IMG/VR virus record: IMGVR_UViG_3300044716_000883
Span: 115,382 to 179,381 of that record
Reading direction: 5' to 3' (one strand)
Source of the DNA: a virus
DNA: 64,000 bases
Shown here: in pieces, positions 4,401 to 38,655 of the stretch
Layout of the letters: every line of letters begins with the position of its first letter
Position numbering within the stretch: position 1 is the stretch's first letter
Made by a program: the position numbers and the translations under genes
Notes under the pieces: generated by a model
Seen by the model: the letters and a program-made list of their open reading frames with translations, nothing else
Told to the model about the DNA's origin: nothing
Databases searched by the model: none

Positions 4401-7400
4401 ACACTTAGGTTTCTTTGTAGGTGGTGGAGATGTAGATACAGGTAATAAATTTGCTTTATATCCTACAAACCAACACCAAATGACTGGTTCATTAGATGTA
4501 AGTGGTAGTGTAAAAGCATTTTCATTTACTGGTTCTTTATTTGGAACTGCTAGTTGGGCTAATAATGCTATAACAGCATCTTATGCTTTAAATGCTATAA
4601 GTGCTTCATTTGCATCAAGTGGTTTAGGAGTATTTAGTGGATCATTTAGTGGATCATTCTTCGGTAATGGAGGTGGTTTAACAAATATACCTGCTTCAAG
4701 CGTTGTAGGATTAAATTTATCTCAAATTTCTTCTGGTAGTGTAACTGCTTCTGTAGACCCAGCTTATGGATTTAAAGTAAACAGCAACACAACTATTTCA
4801 GGTTCAACCCAAATAACTGGATCTTTAGGTGTAACAGGATCTGTTAGTATAGCAGGAACAGGTACAGTATTATCCGCTAATGTAGATACAATCGTATTTA
4901 CAGGTTCATTTGCTCAATCAGGATCAGTAACAGTAAACGGTAATATTACTTCTACTGGTACTATTACAGCTCAAACATTAAATGTTCAAACTATAACATC
5001 ATCTGTTAGTTTTATAACAGGATCATCTAAGTTTGGATCAATAATTTCAAATACACATCAATTTACGGGTAGTATTTTAGTGAGTGGATCTTTAGCTGTT
5101 AATGATTCTAACGTTATTTTAACTAACCAGACATCATCAATGTCTGTGCTAAGTGCTTCATTTGCATCAACCGCATCATATGTTACTTTAGCTCAAACTG
5201 CATCATATATTACTTTAGCTCAAACATCATCTTATGTAACATTAGCTCAAACAGCTTCATACGTAGCAAATGCTCAAACTGCATCTTATGTATTAAATGC
5301 TGTAAGTGCTTCATATGCATCAAATGCAGATTTACTAGATGGTAAAGACAGTACTATATTTGCAACTACAGGTTCAAATACATTTATAGGCACTCAAATA
5401 GTAACTGGAAGTTTATTTACTAGTGGATCAAATTCATTAGTAGGAAACACTATATTAGATGGTACTATTGGAATTAACGGAAACTCAACTTTAACAGGTT
5501 CATTCCTAGTATCAGGTTCTACTACTCAAATAGGAAATAATACCCTAATAGGTAATACCTCATTAACAGGCTCATTTAAAATATCAGGTAGCGAGACTGT
5601 TACAGGATATATTCAATTTGAACCTGTAACAACAAACATTGATACATCAATATCTGCTTCATATATTTTTGTAAGTGGATCTACAAAGGACTTATATTTT
5701 AGCCAAAATAGTGCTGGATATAGTAATGTAACTCGTTTACGTTGGTTAGAAGGTAATTTATATACTGGTCTATTAAATGGTGGTTTAATTACTACTCAAT
5801 CTTCTACTGTTTATCAAATTGGTAGTGGTAGTGGTATTATTGTAGATTTAAACGCATCATTAAATGATAATCCATACCCAACAATCCAATACTTAAGTTG
5901 GGGAAATCTATCAGCTAGTATTGCTCCTTTAACAGCATCATATCAACAAGCATTTGTTGGTATTGATTCATCAAACAACATTTACGCTCAAGGAATACCT
6001 TTTAGTAATGGTCAGTTTGATACTATAATAAACATTGGTAACGTATTATTCCAAAACCAATCTACAATTAATGGTGTTAAAACTCAACCTTCTGTAGCTT
6101 ATGGTTTTGAACAACAACAAAATGTATTTAATAGAGCATTCGGACCATTAAAATTATCAGGATATACTTTAGCACCTAGTGGATCTAGTACACGCGGTTT
6201 ATTAGTAGGAAGTGGTACAGCTTATTCTCCAGGATCTAACTACGTTATAGATCCAAATGAACCTTATTACACAACTGATTCTGGTACTAGTGTATCAAAA
6301 ATATTTAGATATTACCAATCAGGATCTAGTTGGGTTTATTTAACAAACGCAGGTGCTGGATATACAGCAATTGATCCAACTCAATATTCTAATAATGGTA
6401 CTTTATCAGGTGTAGCTAATGGTGAATGGTCAATCCAACGTGTATTTTGGTTCCCTAACTCCGTTACAAAAGCTATAGTAGTTTATTATGGTAATACAGT
6501 ATTTGCAACTGAAGCAGAAGCTATTGCTAATATCAACATAGAATCATTTGTTGAAGCACCTAATACCGCAGCTAACGCTATATATTTAGGTAGTATTGTA
6601 ATTAAAGGAAATGGTGTGTTTACTGCACCTACCGAATTTACAATAGTACCTGGAGGCTTATTTAGACAAGTAGGAGGAACTGGTGGTGGTGGTTCGGTAA
6701 TCACACAAACTCTATCAGGTTTATCTGATGTATTAATATCAGGCCCTACAAGTGGTCAAGCTTTAGTGTATGATTCTACAGCGGCTAAATGGGAAAATAA
6801 ATCATTTATTAGTGCTTCTATCTCAGGAAATGCTGCAACCGCAACAACTGCATCATACGCAGCAAACGTTCCTGAAACAGCATCTTATGCACTATCTGCC
6901 AACTCAGCTTCATACGCTATAACGGCTTCATATGTTAGTCCTTACACCGAGATACTTTCAGCATCGTTTGCAACAACAGCGTCATATGTTAGTCCTTATA
7001 CGACGATAATTTCATCTTCGTTTGCAACAACAGCATCATTTGCTTCAACTGTTAATTACGATAACCTTATAAGATCAGCTTCATTTGCTGAAACCGCTTC
7101 ATACGTTAGTCCGTATACAACAATAATTTCATCGTCATTCGCAACTACCGCCTCATACGTTAGTCCGTATACAGAAATATTTTCAGCATCGTTTGCAACA
7201 ACAGCATCATATGCTTCAACTGTTAACTATGACAATCTTATAAGATCGGCTTCGTTTGCTGAAACAGCGTCATATGTTAGTCCTTATACAATAATACTAT
7301 CATCTTCGTTTGCTGAAACAGCGTCATATGTTAGTCCTTACACAGAAATAATATCGTCATCATTTGCTACTACAGCATCATATGCTTCAAATATCAATTA

Positions 7401-13804: not shown

Positions 13805-15688
13805 ATGGCAAATGAATTTGTAGCCCGCAATGGCCTCATTGCACTTGATAATTCCACTATAAGTGGTTCTTTAAATGTAATTAATAATATTACTGGTTCT
13901 AACGCTTTGTTCACCGGTACTATTACGGCACAAACATTATTAGTCCAAGATATTACTTCCTCAAGAGACTTTGTAACTGGATCTACCAAATTTGGTACTG
14001 TCCCTGCAAATACCCATCAATTTACTGGTTCAGTAAGTATAAGTGGAAGCCTTGCTTTTCCAACAATAGCAATAGGTACAACAGAAACTAATATAGTTGT
14101 AGCTGATGCTAGTGGTAATCTTAGATTTAGATCAAATTTAAGTTTACAGGGGACCACAGGTGCAACAGGCGCTCAAGGAACTACAGGTGCCACTGGTGCA
14201 CAAGGTATACAAGGTACTATAGGTGCTCAAGGTGTTCAAGGTGTTCAAGGTGTTATGGGTGATACGGGCGCGCAAGGCGCTATAGGTACTGGTACACAAG
14301 GTGCTATAGGTGCTACTGGTGCACAAGGTACACAAGGTGCCATAGGTACAACTGGTGCACAAGGTGCTATAGGCACAACTGGTGCGCAAGGCGCTATAGG
14401 AGCAACAGGTGCTCAGGGTGTTCAAGGTGTACAAGGAACTACAGGCGCTACAGGTGCCCAAGGTACTATAGGTACAACTGGCGCTCAGGGTGCCACAGGT
14501 GCAACAGGCGCTCAGGGTGTTCAAGGTGTACAAGGTATTCAAGGTGTACAAGGTCTTCAAGGTATTCAAGGTACTATTGGTACTACAGGCGCTCAAGGAA
14601 CCACAGGCGCTATCGGTGCTCAAGGTGTTCAAGGTGTTCAAGGTACTATAGGTACAACCGGTGCTCAAGGAACAATCGGTACAACAGGTGCACAAGGAAC
14701 AATTGGTACAACCGGTGCACAAGGATCAACAGGTGCTACCGGTGCACAGGGGGCAACAGGCGCTACGGGTGCACAAGGCGCAACAGGCGCTACTGGTGCA
14801 CAAGGTACAATCGGTACAACGGGAGCACAAGGTACAACCGGTACAACAGGCGCTCAAGGAACCACGGGTACAACGGGAGCACAAGGTACTATTGGTACCA
14901 CAGGTGCTCAAGGTACTGTTGGTACTACAGGCGCTCAAGGAACTACAGGTGCAACAGGAGCAAGTGCAGGAATAACTTCATATACAAACGTAGCAGATAA
15001 TAGAGTAATAACATCCGTTAACTCATCTACTATCAATGCAGAAACAAATTTAACATTTGACGGATCTACTTTAACAGTATCTGGAAATACTGCAAATAAG
15101 GTATCTGTTGTAGGTTCAGGCAGTGCAGCAAACTATACTCTATTCTCAATAGATGGAGCAAACGGACGTCTATTTGAAGTAACAGATGACTTATCAGACT
15201 CATTATTTTCAGTAAATACAGTTGCCGGTTTACCTGTAATTGAAGCATTTGCAAATAGTACAGTTAGAATGGGTCAATTTGGTCAACAAGCATTATTTGT
15301 ATCAGCTACTTCAGTTGGTATGGGTAATGAAGCCCCAGCCTATAAACTTGACGTTACAGGTACTATTCGTGCCTCAGCAGACGTTATTGCATATTCAGAT
15401 GCTCGTGTCAAAACAGATGTTATTACAATTGAAAATGCACTTGATAAAGTAAAAGCATTACGTGGTGTAACATATATTCGTGTAGATACAGAAGATAAGT
15501 CTCGTAAAATGGGTGTAATTGCTCAAGAAACTGAAAAAGTATTACCTGAAGTAGTACAACAAGATGAGAAGGGTAGATATAGCGTTGCGTATGGTAACAT
15601 AGTTGGTGTATTAATTGAAGCAATAAAAGAACAACAATCACAGATTGATGAATTAAAAATATTAGTAAATCAATTATTAAATAAATAA
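13805..15688 (+). CDS. Collagen-like tail fibre with a C-terminal peptidase S74 intramolecular chaperone
   Basis: Long G-X-Y tract; SDARVKTD...[13 protein letters not shown]...GVIAQE.E..LPEVV...[16 protein letters not shown] is an S74-type signature. Confidence 0.85.
14150..14965 (+). repeat. Collagen G-X-Y tract, 90 triplets plus one GT interruption, no proline
   Basis: 272 codons made of [15 protein letters not shown] triplets. Confidence 0.9.
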
Positions 15689-32548: not shown

Positions 32549-32968
32549 ATGATAACAGTATTATTTGGACAACCACACTCAGGTAAAACAACATTAGCTG
32601 ATAAACTAGAAGCGGATTATTATATAGATGGAGACCATCTAAGAACTATGTTTCAAAACAAAGATTATAGTAGGCAAGGTAGAATTAATAACTTAAATAG
32701 AGCTAGTGATATTGCTACTTATTTACATTATAACGGTGAAAACGTAGTTTTATCTTTAGTTTATCCATACCAAGAAACAAGAAATTACTTAAATGGCTTG
32801 GTACCTGGGGTTAAATGGATTTATTTAACATATGAAATAGATAGAGGTAGAGAACAATTCCACGTAGCTGATTTTGAACACCCAGCTGATGATGAAGCTC
32901 TATACTTAAATACAGAATGGATAAGCGAAGAAGATTGTATCAAACAAATTAAAGAATATGTGGGATAA
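32549..32968 (+). CDS. Adenylylsulfate kinase (CysC)-like P-loop kinase, short
   Basis: GQPHSGKTT, IDGDHLR, R..NLNRASDIA, SLVYPY..TR. Confidence 0.7.
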   Translation: MITVLFGQPHSGKTTLADKLEADYYIDGDHLRTMFQNKDYSRQGRINNLNRASDIATYLHYNGENVVLSLVYPYQETRNYLNGLVPGVKWIYLTYEIDRGREQFHVADFEHPADDEALYLNTEWISEEDCIKQIKEYVG

Positions 32969-33356
32969 GAAAGTACATGTTAAAAGTTCAATGGAACGTA
33001 AAGATAGTCAATGGTCATTGTTTATTGGACGTTGGCAACCACTCCACACAGGCCATAAAGAATTATTTAGACAAGTAATTAGTGAAGGTGGTAAAGTGTG
33101 TGTTGGTATTAGAGATGGAGAAGTTAATGAAAAAAATCCATTTAGTCCATTTCAAGTAATGGATACTATTTTTAATGAAATGCAAGCTGAAGTAGAAGCA
33201 GGCACTCTAAAAGTAATCATTATACCAGATATTTGCAGTGTTGAATTTGGACGCGGTGTTGGATACGATATTATAGAGCATATACCACCACCAGAAGTGG
33301 CCGAAATATCAGCGACTAAAATACGTGAACAAATGAAATCTGAAGGTAAATTATGA
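32958..33356 (+). CDS. HxGH nucleotidyltransferase (cytidylyltransferase/NMNAT-like fold)
   Basis: FIGRWQPLHTGH, KNPF, EISATKIR. Confidence 0.8.
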   Translation: MWDKKVHVKSSMERKDSQWSLFIGRWQPLHTGHKELFRQVISEGGKVCVGIRDGEVNEKNPFSPFQVMDTIFNEMQAEVEAGTLKVIIIPDICSVEFGRGVGYDIIEHIPPPEVAEISATKIREQMKSEGKL

Positions 33357-33700
33357 TAAAATATCCTACCTATTTTGTAGATATAGATGGTACACTAATT
33401 AAGTACAGAAAATTCAGTGAAATAAATGAAATACCACCAACACCTATACAAAGTGTTATTGATAAAGTAAATAATGAATATGACAACGGTACTCATATAG
33501 TAATTACAACTGCTCGACCTGCAGAACTTGAGTTGTTTACAAAACAAGAACTAGAAAAAATTGGCGTAAAATACCATCAATTAGTAATGGAAATTGGTAG
33601 AGGTACAAGATACATTATCAATGATAGAGACCCAGAAGCACCTGAAGTTGATAGAGCAGTTGGTATTAATTTAAATAGAAATGAAGGAATATGCATGTAA
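33353..33700 (+). CDS. Minimal HAD-superfamily phosphatase
   Basis: FVDIDGTL, ITTAR, IINDR. Confidence 0.75.
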   Translation: MIKYPTYFVDIDGTLIKYRKFSEINEIPPTPIQSVIDKVNNEYDNGTHIVITTARPAELELFTKQELEKIGVKYHQLVMEIGRGTRYIINDRDPEAPEVDRAVGINLNRNEGICM

Positions 33701-33900
33701 GTAAAAAAAGACATATAGCCAAAACCATTAGTTATCGCGTTATTAGTACGCTGATTGGATTTGGCATTATGTGGGCTGTTACCGGCAGCATTAAAATCGG
33801 TGCTGCGTTTGGTATTGCTGAATTAGTATATAAACCAATACAGTATTACATTCATGAACGGATATGGTATAAGTGGATTAAATATGGTTTAAAAAACTAA
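33691..33900 (+). CDS. DUF2061-like small membrane protein
   Basis: RHIAKTISYR...YYIHERIW. Confidence 0.7.
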   Translation: MHVSKKRHIAKTISYRVISTLIGFGIMWAVTGSIKIGAAFGIAELVYKPIQYYIHERIWYKWIKYGLKN

Positions 33901-33908
33901 TATTTATA
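33900..33908 (+). promoter_or_regulatory. Candidate promoter motif ATATTTATA heading the Hint cassette
   Basis: Intergenic copy of the recurrent motif. Confidence 0.45.
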
Positions 33909-33914
33909 TGTGTT

Positions 33915-34202
33915 ATGAATAAAATAAAAGAAATAATGAGTGCATGGGCTGTATCATTTAACCCATCACCAGAACAAAGAGAATTAGCGGAGAAGCGATA
34001 TGAGATATGTTTAGGTTGCGAACATTATGGTAAAAGTAGACCTGTAATCGGAGATGAATATTGTAAAAAATGTTTATGTTCTCTACAAAAAAAGGTATAT
34101 ACACCGAAATTAAACAAAACCTGTCCTCTTAAAAAATGGGAAATTGTAGAAAAAGAATTTAAAGATAAAGAAATAAAAAAAAATAAACAAACATTAATAT
34201 AA
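33915..34202 (+). CDS. Small six-Cys protein, paralogue of 38422..38655
   Basis: AE.R..IC..C...C..C.C.L.KK...CPL.KW. Confidence 0.7.
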   Translation: MNKIKEIMSAWAVSFNPSPEQRELAEKRYEICLGCEHYGKSRPVIGDEYCKKCLCSLQKKVYTPKLNKTCPLKKWEIVEKEFKDKEIKKNKQTLI

Positions 34203-34206
34203 TAAT

Positions 34207-35670
34207 ATGAGAGCAGTTATAGTCGGACTAGATTTTATATATGACTCAGTTGGCAATTTACTACCAATAGAAATGAACACAAACATTGGTTATGCCAACC
34301 AAAAAGTTGAAAAGGATTCAGATGTTTTTGATATGACTGAGTTTCAAAACTTTGTAACCACAAATGGGTTTTTAAAAGTAACATATATAGGTAAAAATAC
34401 TCAAATTAAAGAACAAATTGAAAAGGTTACTACTCAACTTTCTTTAGAATTTGAGTCAATGTTGGTCTCAACATCTGCTATTACTATACCATATGTTGAA
34501 GATAGTCCAACACATTTAATTGTAAGAACAGCTTTTGACACGACTGCAATTTTAGATGATCTTTATTGTGGAAATAAGATTAATTATTTAAACCTAATAA
34601 AAGACTCCGAATTTGGACTAGAGTTTGCATATCTTAATGAAGATGGAGAGTTAGTTAACCACATCACAAATATATTAGATAATGGAATCCACCCAAACTT
34701 CATATTAAAGGCTGTAAAACCAGCATATGACAAAAAAATATACCCAAAATTTTATAGAGTTTCAAATCAAACAGAATTAGATATTGTATTACAAAACGTA
34801 ACCTCTGATTATTTTTTAATGCCATTCTACTTTAATGAAACAAAACTACATTCAGAAAAAATAACTAAAATAAGAAAAATTAGTATGTTTTTTCCTCCTA
34901 ACTTGGAGTCTATCCATATAGGAGCATATACTGATTTAGCAATACAAAAATTAAATAGCAATGTTGTTTTTGATCCAGATACATTTGAAATAGATAACAT
35001 AAATAGGTTGGCATACTTTACAAGAGATTTCAGGATAGAGGGTTTACCGAAATTAATGGATGATGATTATGTAATAATGGCTGATGATACAATGAAGAGC
35101 GGATTGGATTTGCAAGTTGGTGATTTAGTTAAAACAATAGATATACCCAACCCAGAAAATGCTGATGCTAAGAATATAATGGTTAATTATCAAATTGATA
35201 TGGAAACCTTTTTAAGTGGTGTTACATATAGTACAAATAAAGTAACAAGCAAAAGAAGAATTGATATTGTAGTTGAAGTTATGGAAATAAATTTTAGTGA
35301 TGGTACAAATTGGTTCGATACAGTAAACTCAAGTTATTTAGTTTACGAAAATAATGAAATTAAATTTAAAAAAATAATGGATTTTGTTGAAGGAGACATT
35401 GTGTTATTAGTTGATACATCTGATAGCCAGAATGTACAAATACAACAAAAAATAGTACAAAGCACAACCTTAAAAGAAAAAGAATTTTCAGGTTGGACAA
35501 TTTCAGTTGAGAGAGAACATCTATTTTTAACAGTTACAACACCAAACACTACTAATGTATCTTTTGCTAATACATTTTTTGCTGCGGTGGAACATAATTA
35601 TTATTCCTGTATTTATGACACTACATGTGGTAAAGGTTACTTTTGTCTCCGAGGCAGATGTACAACATAA
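34207..35670 (+). CDS. Fusion protein: putative circularly permuted ATP-grasp + Hint domain + C-terminal 4-Cys peptide
   Basis: N-terminal GLDFIYD..GNLLPIEMNTN.G; PNFILKAVKP; Hint blocks KLMDDDYVIMADDTMKSGLDLQVGDLV through AAVEHN; then YYSCIYDTTCGKGYFCLRGRCTT. Confidence 0.6.
   Translation: MRAVIVGLDFIYDSVGNLLPIEMNTNIGYANQKVEKDSDVFDMTEFQNFVTTNGFLKVTYIGKNTQIKEQIEKVTTQLSLEFESMLVSTSAITIPYVEDSPTHLIVRTAFDTTAILDDLYCGNKINYLNLIKDSEFGLEFAYLNEDGELVNHITNILDNGIHPNFILKAVKPAYDKKIYPKFYRVSNQTELDIVLQNVTSDYFLMPFYFNETKLHSEKITKIRKISMFFPPNLESIHIGAYTDLAIQKLNSNVVFDPDTFEIDNINRLAYFTRDFRIEGLPKLMDDDYVIMADDTMKSGLDLQVGDLVKTIDIPNPENADAKNIMVNYQIDMETFLSGVTYSTNKVTSKRRIDIVVEVMEINFSDGTNWFDTVNSSYLVYENNEIKFKKIMDFVEGDIVLLVDTSDSQNVQIQQKIVQSTTLKEKEFSGWTISVEREHLFLTVTTPNTTNVSFANTFFAAVEHNYYSCIYDTTCGKGYFCLRGRCTT
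35050..35598 (+). other. Hint (intein-like) domain ending in His-Asn, with Lys at the Cys1 position
   Basis: Manual alignment to intein blocks A, B, F and G. Confidence 0.7.
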
Positions 35671-35717
35671 TACTAATCAACACCCCCAAATTAATTAATA
35701 TTAAATTTCTATATAAA

Positions 35718-35795
35718 ATGACAAGTCAAGAAAAACAAATTACAGACAATATTGTAAATAGTATTGGTAATTTAATAGTGCAGGCTAATAGCTAA
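35718..35795 (+). CDS. 25-aa ORF MTSQEKQITDNIVNSIGNLIVQANS, absent from the ORF track
   Basis: ATG to TAA within the 150-bp gap, preceded by an A-rich leader like other genes. Confidence 0.4.
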   Translation: MTSQEKQITDNIVNSIGNLIVQANS

Positions 35796-35821
35796 TTAAA
35801 TAAGATTTTTAAATAAAGTTT

Positions 35822-36553
35822 ATGTCAATTTGTGTAAATAACGACCTTATATGGGTGGCAACCCCAAAATGTGCTAGCATGTCTATAGAATGTGCTTTTA
35901 TTAATTCTAATCTGAACATAGATCATTACAAATACGGACAAAGTAAATCTTATCCTGAACATCATCATATTAGGTTATCTGATTTGTATCAAAAATTTGG
36001 TAAAAAAGATACTGCAGTAATTAAAAGAGATTATTTTGACAGATGGATTAGTGGATTACAGTATTTGTGGATGATGTATGAGGAAAAAAATTATGAAATA
36101 ATAATAAAATGGGAAGATATCAATAATGATTTTATATATGAGACTTTCACACCAGAATTTATCGATCAAATATACTCTTTACCATCCTCAGTAAATTCAT
36201 CAGATCTATTAAGTTTTAGCGAAATAAACAAATATAAGGAAGTATTAAAACTAATTACTTCTAAATTAGTAAAACCAAAACTAAAAGACTCTAATACCCC
36301 CTTTAATCCATATTTTTTGCTAAAATCACAATCACATTGGGTAGATAATAATAAATGTACATATGAATTTAATATTAGTGAGATTGACAAATTTGAAAAT
36401 TTTATTTCAAATAGATATAATGTGAAATTTAAGGTATGTAAGTTAAATCAAAATAAATCTAGAAAAAATCAAATCATAAAAGACGAAAAACTTAAACAAT
36501 GGGTATGGGATAATTTTGAGAAAAGATTTGAAAAAAGAAACTCATTAATATGA
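35822..36553 (+). CDS. Sulfotransferase family 2-like
   Basis: WVATPKCASMSI PAPS-binding loop, HHHI, RDYFDRWISG, SQSHW. Confidence 0.7.
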   Translation: MSICVNNDLIWVATPKCASMSIECAFINSNLNIDHYKYGQSKSYPEHHHIRLSDLYQKFGKKDTAVIKRDYFDRWISGLQYLWMMYEEKNYEIIIKWEDINNDFIYETFTPEFIDQIYSLPSSVNSSDLLSFSEINKYKEVLKLITSKLVKPKLKDSNTPFNPYFLLKSQSHWVDNNKCTYEFNISEIDKFENFISNRYNVKFKVCKLNQNKSRKNQIIKDEKLKQWVWDNFEKRFEKRNSLI

Positions 36554-37047
36554 TAATATCAAACAAATATTTTAATCATTCTGAATGTTTAACTATATTA
36601 GATTTTGTAAAATCCAACCAACAAAAATGGAAATTATTTAATAGAGAATATGAATCCCATGCTATAGATTATTCACTTGAAACAATGTGGTTATTTGAAA
36701 AGCTTAGTTCTTTTTTTGAAGAAAATATAAATTTAAAAATAAAAAAATTAAAACCACAAATACATTTTCATAAATTTAAAGAAGGTGATTGGTTTGGAAA
36801 ACATAATGACGCCCGAGATAATAGAGTATATGCTGTCGGTGTTTTATTAAATGACAATTTTGATGGAGGAGATTTTAAATTTTATAACCCAACAGAACAA
36901 ACACTAAATAAAATAGTAGGAAATACTTACTTGTTTGATGTTAGAATTGAACATGAAATAACACCTATTATAAAAGGAGAAAGATATTCATTATTGTGGT
37001 TTTTACAAAACGAACATATCAAATTTCAAACAAATAAATTAATATAA
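36550..37047 (+). CDS. 2OG-Fe(II) oxygenase (prolyl-4-hydroxylase-like)
   Basis: KF.EGDWFGKHND (HxD), FDGGDF, HEITPI.KGERYSL. Confidence 0.85.
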   Translation: MIISNKYFNHSECLTILDFVKSNQQKWKLFNREYESHAIDYSLETMWLFEKLSSFFEENINLKIKKLKPQIHFHKFKEGDWFGKHNDARDNRVYAVGVLLNDNFDGGDFKFYNPTEQTLNKIVGNTYLFDVRIEHEITPIIKGERYSLLWFLQNEHIKFQTNKLI

Positions 37048-37664
37048 TGAAAGGTACAGAAGAACTTATAATAAGTAACAATGCAATAAAATTATCAACT
37101 GATGATGAATATAGTGCCGTTATGCACATTGCCGAAAAATCTATAATGAATAAACTTGCAGAAATTGTTACTAAAAATGGAGGTGATATACTAGAAATTG
37201 GATTTGGTATGAACCTATCTGCCGATGCTATACAATCAAATCCAAATGTAACGTCTCATACTATAATTGAAATCCATCCTATACAATACCAAAGAGCATT
37301 AGAATGGGCAAAATTGCAAAAAAAGAAAACTACAATTTTACTAGGAGATTGGATTGATTTACTTCCACTTTCTGATGTAAAATTCGATGGTATTTTACAT
37401 GATACACATTTAGACTCAAATATACATAAATTTTTAGACTATGTTGTAGATAATTGTAAAAAAAATACGATTGTTGGTTTTTTTGGATTTCCTAAATTTG
37501 ACTTACGTTTAAATGGAGTTAGATGTTCAATTGATAGTGAAATATATGAAACACTCCCTTATAAGGATAATATACATTTTAAACATAATCAATTTGAATT
37601 AAAATATACTATATTTGATGGAACACAATTTAAATCAGACAATAAAACAATATCTTTACTATAA
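37047..37664 (+). CDS. GAMT/Rmt2-like guanidino N-methyltransferase
   Basis: VMHIAE..IM..LA...GGDILEIGFGM...HTIIE.HP...W...FDGILHDT closely follows guanidinoacetate methyltransferase motifs. Confidence 0.7.
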   Translation: MKGTEELIISNNAIKLSTDDEYSAVMHIAEKSIMNKLAEIVTKNGGDILEIGFGMNLSADAIQSNPNVTSHTIIEIHPIQYQRALEWAKLQKKKTTILLGDWIDLLPLSDVKFDGILHDTHLDSNIHKFLDYVVDNCKKNTIVGFFGFPKFDLRLNGVRCSIDSEIYETLPYKDNIHFKHNQFELKYTIFDGTQFKSDNKTISLL

Positions 37665-37679
37665 GAAATCTGACTTAAA

Positions 37680-38117
37680 ATGATAAAATTCGAATTAGAT
37701 ATTAACGATTATAATTTAATTAAAGATTTAAATGTATTGCAATATAAGGATGATTTGCAATCCGATGATATAAAAAAATTAATAACATATTTTAATTCTG
37801 AATATACATGGGATAAGATGTTTAATTTTAATGATGTTACGGATAGAATTAAAAATGGCCATTTATTATTTATTTTATATTATGAAAATAAATCTATTGG
37901 ATATGTATTTTTCAAACCAATAACCAATTCCGAATTTTATCTTTATAATTTATATGTTACAAACAAAATATATCGTCCTTTCTATGCACCTCAGTGGTTT
38001 GTAAATAGATGTATAGGTTTATTACCAAAATCAATTTTAAAAATATTGTGTGAATGCGAAGACTGGCATGCATCAGCACAAAATGTGTTTATTTCAAACG
38101 GATTTATAAAAATTTAA
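37680..38117 (+). CDS. GNAT-fold acetyltransferase-like
   Basis: IGYVFF...YLYNLYV...R...W..SAQNVF..NGF. Confidence 0.55.
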   Translation: MIKFELDINDYNLIKDLNVLQYKDDLQSDDIKKLITYFNSEYTWDKMFNFNDVTDRIKNGHLLFILYYENKSIGYVFFKPITNSEFYLYNLYVTNKIYRPFYAPQWFVNRCIGLLPKSILKILCECEDWHASAQNVFISNGFIKI

Positions 38118-38131
38118 TTATATAAAATAAA

Positions 38132-38163
38132 TTTGGTGGTCTCCATTCTCTTGTATATATTTA
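38132..38163 (+). promoter_or_regulatory. Bacteroidota-type sigma70 promoter TTTG-N20-TATATTTA
   Basis: Matches the -33 TTTG / -7 TAnnTTTG consensus spacing. Confidence 0.6.
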
Positions 38164-38185
38164 TATCAAACAAATAAAATTTATT

Positions 38186-38422
38186 ATGACAGTATTAGTA
38201 ATCCTAATCATCGTTGCCGTAGCGGTATTCGTTGCTATGAAAACCGGTAAGGTTAAAGATGCAAACAACAACAACATTCCTGACGCTATTGAAAAGCCAC
38301 TTGAAGAAGTAAAAGAAGTAGTTAAAGCAACTGTTGCAAAAGTAAAAGCTACTAAAGCACCACAAGCTCCTAAAGCAACAAAAAAACCAGTAGCAAAAAC
38401 TAGTGCTAAAAAGCAAAAGTAA
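38186..38422 (+). CDS. Membrane-anchored small protein with a Lys/Ala/Pro-rich tail
   Basis: N-terminal hydrophobic helix, DANNNNIPD, KAPKATKKPVAK tail. Confidence 0.65.
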   Translation: MTVLVILIIVAVAVFVAMKTGKVKDANNNNIPDAIEKPLEEVKEVVKATVAKVKATKAPQAPKATKKPVAKTSAKKQK

Positions 38423-38655
38423 TGCTAAAACTAGCAGAAATAGCTAAGGCATGGATAGCAGCAGCTAATCCAACACCTGGGCAAAAAATTATAGCAGAGC
38501 ATAGGGCGAGTGTTTGTGACACTTGCCCAAGCAAAGCTTATAATAAAATAATGGATTTCTATTTTTGCAGTGAATGTGGATGTCCACTAAACAAAAAAAT
38601 TTTCAGTCCTGTTGAGGGACCTAAAGCTTGCCCGTTAGCTAAATGGGAAAAATAA
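38422..38655 (+). CDS. Small six-Cys protein, paralogue of 33915..34202
   Basis: Same Cys spacing and AW..NP.P.Q...AE.R motif. Confidence 0.7.
   Translation: MLKLAEIAKAWIAAANPTPGQKIIAEHRASVCDTCPSKAYNKIMDFYFCSECGCPLNKKIFSPVEGPKACPLAKWEK

Follow-up and report, generated by a model that had tools for sequence, protein, structure and literature searches.

What is the substrate of four modifying enzymes encoded one behind the other in a phage genome, directly downstream of a gene that seems to make a small peptide and cut it free? The locus lies within positions 115,382 to 179,381 of the IMG/VR virus record IMGVR_UViG_3300044716_000883, a stretch of 64,000 nucleotides that we call the window. Here, a gene for a ligase-like protein joined to a Hint domain and a short Cys-rich tail (the fusion) is followed by a micro-open reading frame (micro-ORF) and by genes for a predicted sulfotransferase, a 2-oxoglutarate (2OG)/Fe(II) oxygenase, a methyltransferase, and a GNAT-fold protein. 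The original prediction, made from the sequence alone, was that this cassette produces a heavily modified peptide effector. Its observation is confirmed: the micro-ORF and four tightly coupled enzyme genes do lie behind the fusion on the + strand, and all four enzyme families were called correctly at the level of fold, two of them (sulfotransferase and GNAT) beyond the reach of sequence libraries. Its interpretation is partly supported. Across dozens of related phages the sulfotransferase, oxygenase, and micro-ORF travel with the fusion, and this suggests a so far undescribed route for decorating a peptide or protein; the methyltransferase and GNAT-like genes are not linked in this way, and the proposed matching of peptide residues to enzymes did not hold up. 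We put at roughly 45% the probability that these four genes form the variable tailoring part of a conserved module in phages, one that modifies a peptide of its own making. A glycan or virion-surface target is a serious rival. The genes in question are these.

33915–34202, + strand: 95-aa Cys-rich (CxxC...CxxCGCP) Zn-ribbon-like protein ending ..QTLI (phrog_13558, E 7e-8)
34207–35670, + strand: 487-aa ligase-like/Hint/Cys-rich-tail fusion protein, from a family of 424 protein clusters in which H463-N464, directly before the tail, is invariant
35599–35667, + strand: coding region of the 23-aa, four-Cys tail after His-Asn, a candidate released peptide
35718–35795, + strand: 25-aa micro-ORF, a conserved small gene
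35822–36553, + strand: 243-aa predicted sulfotransferase of the 3'-phosphoadenosine 5'-phosphosulfate (PAPS) type, from an unannotated family, ending ..NSLI (structure model, fold match, and PAPS motifs)
36550–37047, + strand: 165-aa prolyl 4-hydroxylase (P4H)-like 2OG/Fe(II) oxygenase ending ..NKLI (PF13640, phrog_61)
37047–37664, + strand: 205-aa GAMT/Rmt2-like S-adenosylmethionine (SAM)-dependent N-methyltransferase (Protein Data Bank [PDB] code 3orh, E 4e-14; precomputed PF27704)
37680–38117, + strand: 145-aa GNAT-fold protein with a degenerate CoA-binding loop (structure model and Foldseek)

From the micro-ORF through the four enzyme genes, successive junctions are a 26-nt gap, a 4-nt overlap, a 1-nt overlap, and a 15-nt gap.

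Genes that travel with the fusion

IMG/VR was our sole source of gene neighborhoods, about 230 loci in total. The fusion used as a single-sequence query found no match there, and an alignment was needed; the alignment-based scan returned 205 stretches encoding members of the fusion family, and we examined 80 of these loci. Scans with the sulfotransferase and methyltransferase families contributed about 150 more. We call a fusion locus well flanked when it has at least 3 kb of sequence upstream and at least 7 kb downstream, and 31 distinct loci qualify.

The linkage holds in both directions. The Zn-ribbon gene is the invariable partner of the fusion, present at all 31 well-flanked loci, while a sulfotransferase of either of two subtypes is found at 27 and a 2OG oxygenase at 26; at 16 of the 31 there is an orthologue of the window's own oxygenase. 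In 20 of the 27 loci, the sulfotransferase gene starts within 400 nt of the start of the Zn-ribbon gene. Coming from the other side, 55 sulfotransferase loci have 4.5 kb or more of upstream sequence, and 52 of them contain the fusion. The usual module reads as adenosine 5'-phosphosulfate (APS)-kinase-like protein, HxGH nucleotidyltransferase, DUF2061, fusion, micro-ORF, Zn-ribbon, sulfotransferase, and one to five 2OG oxygenases, with the occasional addition of a methyltransferase, a GNAT-like protein, or a Trp halogenase. Three gene orders occur: Zn-ribbon, fusion, micro-ORF, sulfotransferase in the window; fusion, micro-ORF, Zn-ribbon, sulfotransferase at most loci; and sulfotransferase, Zn-ribbon, fusion at loci of the L001 type. 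The number and kind of enzymes differ from locus to locus around this constant core, and L001 itself carries five 2OG oxygenases and a Trp halogenase. At five loci (L013, L024, L047, L054, and L059) the APS-kinase (sulfate) module lies 8 to 10 kb away, and the sulfotransferase remains beside the fusion. L030 has three oxygenases, the fusion, the Zn-ribbon, and the sulfotransferase in the midst of DNA methylases, and no detectable sugar gene lies within 10 kb. Sulfotransferase, oxygenase, and micro-ORF keep to the fusion far more closely than inherited synteny alone would explain. Co-occurrence of the enzymes with the Hint fusion in other genomes is thus borne out for these three genes, through all the rearrangements; the methyltransferase and GNAT-like genes turn up only sporadically.

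The micro-ORF deserves a word of its own. In 58 of 59 distinct main-clade loci, an ORF of 24 to 30 aa starts no more than some tens of bases from the fusion's stop codon, and its products end in a conserved I-G-x-L-I-x-x-x-N-S. Pairwise differences at codon positions 1, 2, and 3 are 0.33, 0.29, and 0.51, a pattern that marks it as a real gene under purifying selection on its protein. Diverged fusion clades have a 37- to 46-aa ORF in the same position with clade-specific endings, such as K-H-L-S. A gene of 24 to 46 aa is universally conserved here, and standard gene callers would miss an ORF of this kind.

The fusion and its enzymes

Searches of Pfam, PHROGs, and NCBIfam gave no useful match for the fusion. 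Its neighbors in the Atlas carry PT-HINT (PF07591)/Intein_splicing domains, and in one viral cluster there an AXH domain occurs together with PT-HINT and intein-splicing domains. Against PDB sequences, the fusion-family profile picked up nothing beyond weak AXH matches; residues 280–321 (window 35044–35169) weakly resemble the ataxin-1 AXH domain (E 0.4). The start of the protein (34207–34290) reads D-F-x-x-D...P-I-E-x-N-T, a motif that in ATP-grasp enzymes normally belongs to the last ATP/Mg-binding strand, and its E22-x-N24 is the sole basis for the candidate ATP-grasp label used here. The N terminus would fit a permuted or truncated ATP-grasp domain.

At the other end of the protein, the tails of the fusion's relatives are 30 to 62 aa long, contain an even number of Cys residues (6, 8, or 10), and are hypervariable on a conserved body. 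A single Lys, in a C-x-K motif, is invariant among them. The residues that the original prediction had picked out as modification sites (Tyr next to Asp, the Arg residues of LRGR, and one Lys) are all present in the window's 23-aa tail. In a diverged clade (L001:1555-2799 and 5802-7295; L146, L150, L171-L174, L183, and L191) the tails start C-W-C-P-W, and every locus has a gene for a flavin Trp halogenase and more than one for 2OG oxygenases nearby. The clade and its halogenase amount to a single evolutionary event and so provide no statistical evidence.

The sulfotransferase is invisible to the domain libraries: the 243-aa protein has no match in Pfam (E 0.1; no hit that qualifies for Sulfotransfer_1 to 5), PHROGs, or NCBIfam; none of the family's approximately 100 database clusters has a precomputed Pfam domain; and one of 35 relatives matches Sulfotransfer_2 (E 5.5e-5). 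The family profile against PDB sequences reached a best E of about 0.2, to HS2ST. Those 35 relatives, taken from the IMG/VR loci, form the alignment from which a structure model was built (pLDDT 89). Foldseek with this model returned no E below 0.001. When it was compared by VIA-align with 48,161 representative PDB chains, the top 12 were all sulfotransferases, the best being heparan sulfate 2-O-, 6-O-, and 3-O-sulfotransferases (Z 8.4, 7.7, and 6.7; for HS2ST, 164 residues aligned with an rmsd of 3.9). Both PAPS-binding elements can be located across the 35 sequences. The 5'-phosphosulfate loop is P15-K/R16-C-A18-S19-x-S21, with A18 and S19 invariant and P15 and S21 conserved in at least 90%; the Arg and Ser for the 3'-phosphate are R69, invariant, and S77, nearly so, eight residues apart in K-R-D-Y-F-D-R-W-I-S. 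H47 and H49 are also conserved. On model and motifs together, we assign the protein a PAPS-type sulfotransferase fold in a family that has no Pfam model.

The oxygenase was easier to place. It scores 34.2 bits against PF13640 (cut-off 27; E 5e-8) and E 6e-14 against phrog_61, and its HxD motif (KHND), distal His (EHEI), and 2OG-binding Arg (GERYS) are kept in 16 orthologues at 57 to 68% identity.

The methyltransferase does follow the motifs of guanidinoacetate and delta-N-arginine methyltransferases, as had been proposed. Among PDB proteins it matches GAMT of human and rat (3orh) with an E of 4e-14, in a phmmer alignment that covers only residues 25–122 of 205. It has a SAM motif I (L-E-I-G-F-G-M), and E30 and D119, invariant in 21 family members, align with E45 and D134 of GAMT, which bind the guanidino group. 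The description of such enzymes as unusual in phages depends on where one looks. One of 50,697 GenBank phage records has a relative; the family has 248 matching stretches in IMG/VR and 1527 protein-database clusters, and GAMT has been reported among the virus-enriched auxiliary genes of ocean viromes (PMC11360552).

The 145-aa GNAT-like protein has no match in Pfam, PHROGs, or NCBIfam. Its structure model (pLDDT 82) has 69 Foldseek matches in the PDB at E 0.001 or better, the best at 7.5e-6, with TM scores of 0.64 to 0.74 to VipF, HP0935, and NMT. The pyrophosphate loop of GNAT enzymes, Q/R-x-x-G-x-G/A, is replaced in the window by Y-R-P-F-Y-A-P; the relatives have R-N-Y-G-A-T, a partial match.

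Several of these otherwise unrelated proteins end alike. A hydrophobic C-terminal dipeptide (LI, LL, or II), often as K/N-x-L-I, is common to the Zn-ribbon, sulfotransferase, oxygenase, and methyltransferase families (loci L004-L083); in the window these gene ends lie at 34191–34202, 36542–36553, 37036–37047, and 37653–37664. The tag is also found on sugar-island families, such as those of window ORFs 24555, 26834, and 27636, and is lacking from the carbamoyltransferase, nucleotidyltransferase, DUF2061, and GNAT-like families. Genome-wide, the dipeptide ends 7 of 26 island genes versus 13 of 203 others (p 0.003). Its codons and the stop codons vary, so the tag is a feature of the proteins; a DNA-level coupling motif (TTAATATAA) as the origin of the shared LI ending is ruled out on the same grounds. 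The shared tag suggests that its bearers belong to one assembly.

Candidate substrates

From the gene set, folds, catalytic motifs, and linkage, we infer that the enzymes share one substrate and that the module itself supplies it as a ribosomal product, most likely as the Cys-rich tail, otherwise as the micro-ORF peptide. The tail would be freed by Asn cyclization at the His-Asn end of the Hint domain. The P4H-like oxygenase would then add a hydroxyl to the peptide, and the sulfotransferase, whose gene overlaps that of the oxygenase by 4 nt, would move sulfate from phage-supplied PAPS to a hydroxyl, be it that of Tyr or the newly made one. In this phage, the GAMT-like enzyme may also N-methylate a guanidino or amino group, and the GNAT-fold protein, if active, may acylate an amine. 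The layout is that of peptides made on ribosomes and modified after translation (RiPPs), with a hypervariable tail on a conserved body and sulfotransferase and oxygenase adjacent in 26 to 27 of the 31 loci. More tentatively, one can picture a phage-only, RiPP-like class in which a fast-evolving, disulfide-type peptide is released by a Hint domain, hydroxylated, sulfated, and sometimes methylated, acylated, or halogenated by enzymes recruited through their C-terminal tag, with the micro-peptide and Zn-ribbon as cofactors and a conotoxin-like repertoire as the outcome.

A good deal weighs against this peptide reading. All the loci come from related phages, so part of the synteny is inherited. 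The methyltransferase is present at 2 of 33 fusion loci and the GNAT-like gene at 5; neither is core, and both are optional extras. The degenerate CoA loop makes the activity of the GNAT-fold protein uncertain. The window's tail contains no Pro for a P4H-like enzyme. All tails (100%) that have a sulfotransferase nearby contain Tyr, and so do 92% of the others; being near-universal, it discriminates nothing about sulfation. There were raw associations for the other pairings: the number of 2OG oxygenases with tail Pro (rho 0.44, p 0.015), the methyltransferase with tail Arg (13 of 18 versus 11 of 34, p 0.009), and the Trp halogenase with tail Trp (p 0.005). We then drew phylogenetically independent pairs on a tree of fusion bodies. 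For oxygenase and Pro, about 10 pairs gave 0.9 as predicted versus 1.1 in the opposite direction; methyltransferase and Arg came down to 3 to 4 pairs, and halogenase and Trp to 1. On independent pairs the raw associations fail or lack power; they reflect clades and not repeated co-evolution. We have dropped residue matching altogether, for Tyr with sulfotransferase, Pro with 2OG oxygenase, Arg with methyltransferase, and Trp with halogenase.

Three further points against a peptide are also the starting points of its strongest rival. The sulfotransferase fold is closest to carbohydrate O-sulfotransferases, and tyrosylprotein sulfotransferase (TPST) is not among the 50 best matches. At three sulfotransferase loci there is no fusion, and the gene sits between an APS-kinase-like gene and a GT4+GT9/TibC-like glycosyltransferase gene. 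The cassette also adjoins about 17 kb of sugar-related genes, among which UDP-glucose dehydrogenase and carbamoyltransferase are confirmed by Pfam. Perhaps, then, the cassette finishes a glycan. It would be the decoration end of the sugar island, sulfating a sugar hydroxyl with phage PAPS, on a glycan carried by a virion fiber, for which the Thr-rich collagen-like protein is one candidate; carbamoyltransferase, methyltransferase, and acyltransferase would all work on the same oligosaccharide. Nod factors, decorated by NodU, NodH/NodPQ, NodS, and NodL, are the obvious comparison. The genes directly upstream encode the UDP-glucose dehydrogenase and a carbamoyltransferase of the NodU/CmcH type, sugar-island proteins have the C-terminal tag in common with the cassette, and the one Sulfotransfer_2 match in the family counts on the same side. 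Two fusion-less loci, L089:6535-10110 and L107:6568-13615, run from the APS-kinase-like gene through the sulfotransferase to the 820-aa glycosyltransferase; in L107, an 816-aa TIG-repeat protein comes next.

The collagen-like fiber (13805–15688) bears on this as well. It has 90 G-X-Y triplets in which X is A, T, V, or I and Y is Q, T, or I, with no Pro, Lys, Tyr, or Arg. Without Pro or Lys, the repeats offer no substrate to a P4H or a lysyl hydroxylase, and we could rule out collagen prolyl or lysyl hydroxylation in this phage; O-glycosylation of the Thr-rich triplets is possible and fits them better than hydroxylation. By eye only, the C-terminal part of the fiber looks like an intramolecular chaperone. 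What counts against a glycan is the company that the sulfotransferase keeps. Where the two separate, it tracks the fusion/Zn-ribbon pair and not the sugar genes; L030 has it with the fusion and no sugar genes within 10 kb, and the fusion is there in all but three of the 55 sulfotransferase loci. For the P4H-like oxygenase and the GAMT-like guanidino methyltransferase, no sugar substrate is obvious. The structural matches to heparan sulfate enzymes have middling Z-scores, and the acceptor does not follow from the fold. Serious as this rival is, on balance we think it somewhat unlikely.

Improbable, in our view, is that the genes are independent auxiliary or moron genes that have gathered in a hyperplastic region upstream of the tail sheath gene, each with its own host metabolite or protein target, for example a small guanidino compound for the GAMT-like enzyme. 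The methyltransferase family is large (those 1527 clusters), and the fusion is within 8 kb at only 14 of 28 well-flanked methyltransferase loci. The methyltransferase stands beside the sheath gene without the fusion in L002/L003 and L212-L229, and it occurs with no queried module gene within 8 kb in L157, L167, and L179, among others. The report of virus enrichment for GAMT, the tandem dioxygenase arrays with halogenases in cyanophage Syn9 (PMC2938197), and the varying number and kind of enzymes between loci all suit such an explanation. It sits poorly with the tight, permutation-resistant linkage of sulfotransferase, Zn-ribbon, micro-ORF, and fusion, with the translational coupling in the window, and with a protein-level C-terminal tag on unrelated enzyme families. 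The commonest site for the methyltransferase is between the HxGH nucleotidyltransferase and DUF2061 of the APS-kinase module, with or without the fusion (L159-L176, L182-L187, L190, L194, and L001 have close homologues there), which raises the question of whether that module has a role beyond making PAPS.

Least probable of all is that the enzymes modify another protein (the Zn-ribbon, the fusion body, or a virion protein), with the tag recruiting them to a common scaffold or into the particle: the tag is common to the Zn-ribbon and three enzyme families, the Zn-ribbon is the only partner in every locus, and tail-collar and collagen-like proteins have been proposed as substrates of such clusters (Iyer et al., PMC2938197), but the repeats of the collagen-like fiber here lack Pro, Lys, Tyr, and Arg.

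Setting and relation to known systems

The window is the final 64 kb of a 179,381-bp single-contig phage genome (GC 32.9%). The contig ends overlap, so the assembly is probably complete, and one strand carries 226 of its 229 genes. The region is followed by genes for tail sheath, tube, and baseplate, which identifies an uncultured phage of the myovirus type. Upstream of the cassette, Pfam recognizes the UDP-glucose dehydrogenase, the NodU/CmcH-type carbamoyltransferase, and the genes of the likely sulfate module. That module and the promoter-like motif are placed as follows.

32549–33900, + strand: APS-kinase-like, HxGH nucleotidyltransferase, HAD-like, and DUF2061 genes (Pfam matches), directly 5' of the fusion in most loci and probably the PAPS supply
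33900–33907, + strand: ATATTTAT motif, candidate late-type promoter element before the unit
38157–38164, + strand: next copy of ATATTTAT, marking the end of the unit

The claim that one candidate promoter at 33900 serves the whole unit survives in part. ATATTTAT is there and does not recur until 38157; of the 22 copies in the window, 20 read along the + (coding) strand, mostly 10 to 50 nt before start codons, and the genes that it precedes include many of the head, tail, and island. It probably belongs to a phage promoter, and its spacing, strand bias, and placement make a single transcription unit from 33915 to 38117 plausible. Against that, the total count in the window is not above chance, and a scan for sigma-70 promoters was uninformative, with fewer sites than in shuffled sequence.

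A second, shorter Zn-ribbon paralogue (38422–38655; 38% identity, no C-terminal tag) follows a 78-aa membrane-like protein and directly precedes the sheath operon. Elsewhere, one 211-kb contig (IMGVR_UViG_3300042892_005961; L017 and L064) carries two diverged fusion modules about 38 kb apart, one of them among NifU, peptidoglycan hydrolase, and DNA repair genes. The region has no relatives in the GenBank phage collection, and 185,579 bacterial and archaeal genomes yielded no relative of the fusion; on these searches, the module appears to be known only from phages. Nor did we find a paper describing a ligase-Hint-peptide gene with these partners.

How does the module compare with what is known? 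In Xanthomonas, the RaxX/RaxST/RaxPQ system makes a sulfated ribosomal peptide; RaxST is of the tyrosylprotein type, and RaxX is released by a peptidase-transporter. The phage module resembles it in encoding a dedicated sulfotransferase and PAPS supply beside a small ribosomal peptide. It differs in that release would be by a Hint domain and in a sulfotransferase fold nearest to carbohydrate O-sulfotransferases. Like RiPP clusters, it has a hypervariable core fused to a large conserved N-terminal part, beside variable tailoring enzymes. Unlike them, it is known only from phages, and no RiPP recognition element (RRE), protease, or transporter was identified at the module. We know of no RiPP class with Hint-domain release or with a precursor fused to a ligase-like domain. 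With GAMT and Rmt2, the phage methyltransferase has in common SAM motif I and the guanidino-holding Glu/Asp pair, invariant in the phage family; its C-terminal third, which binds carboxylate in GAMT, falls outside the alignment and looks unrelated by sequence, and its genes keep the company of a sulfate/tailoring module and not of creatine synthesis.

The nearest precedent as a gene neighborhood was described in 2010 by Iyer et al. (PMC2938197), who reported 2OG dioxygenases together with sulfotransferases, PAPS synthetases, acetyltransferases, and methyltransferases, as well as cyanophage dioxygenase/halogenase arrays, and predicted that collagen-like or tail-collar proteins encoded alongside are first hydroxylated and then sulfated. 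The phage module brings together the same enzyme superfamilies, with halogenases at some loci, and likewise occurs in phages. Their predicted substrates are collagen-like or tail-collar proteins or nonribosomal peptides, whereas the module has a constant fusion, micro-ORF, and Zn-ribbon, a C-terminal tag, and a sulfotransferase family without a Pfam model. The pretoxin-HINT arrangement of polymorphic toxins (Zhang et al. 2012, PMC3482391) also places a Hint domain before a variable C-terminal module that it would release. There, that module is a toxin domain; here, it would be a Cys-rich peptide of 23 to 62 aa with tailoring enzymes alongside.

Some of this stands whatever the target turns out to be: a sulfotransferase family that the libraries do not see, a conserved gene of 24 to 46 aa, and a C-terminal tag on unrelated enzymes. 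If the enzymes do decorate the Hint-released peptide, large freshwater phages would be making heavily modified, rapidly evolving Cys-rich peptides in a manner without parallel in the RiPP pathways of cells. Peptide chemistry would gain a new source, and the conflicts of phages with their hosts or with one another a new participant.

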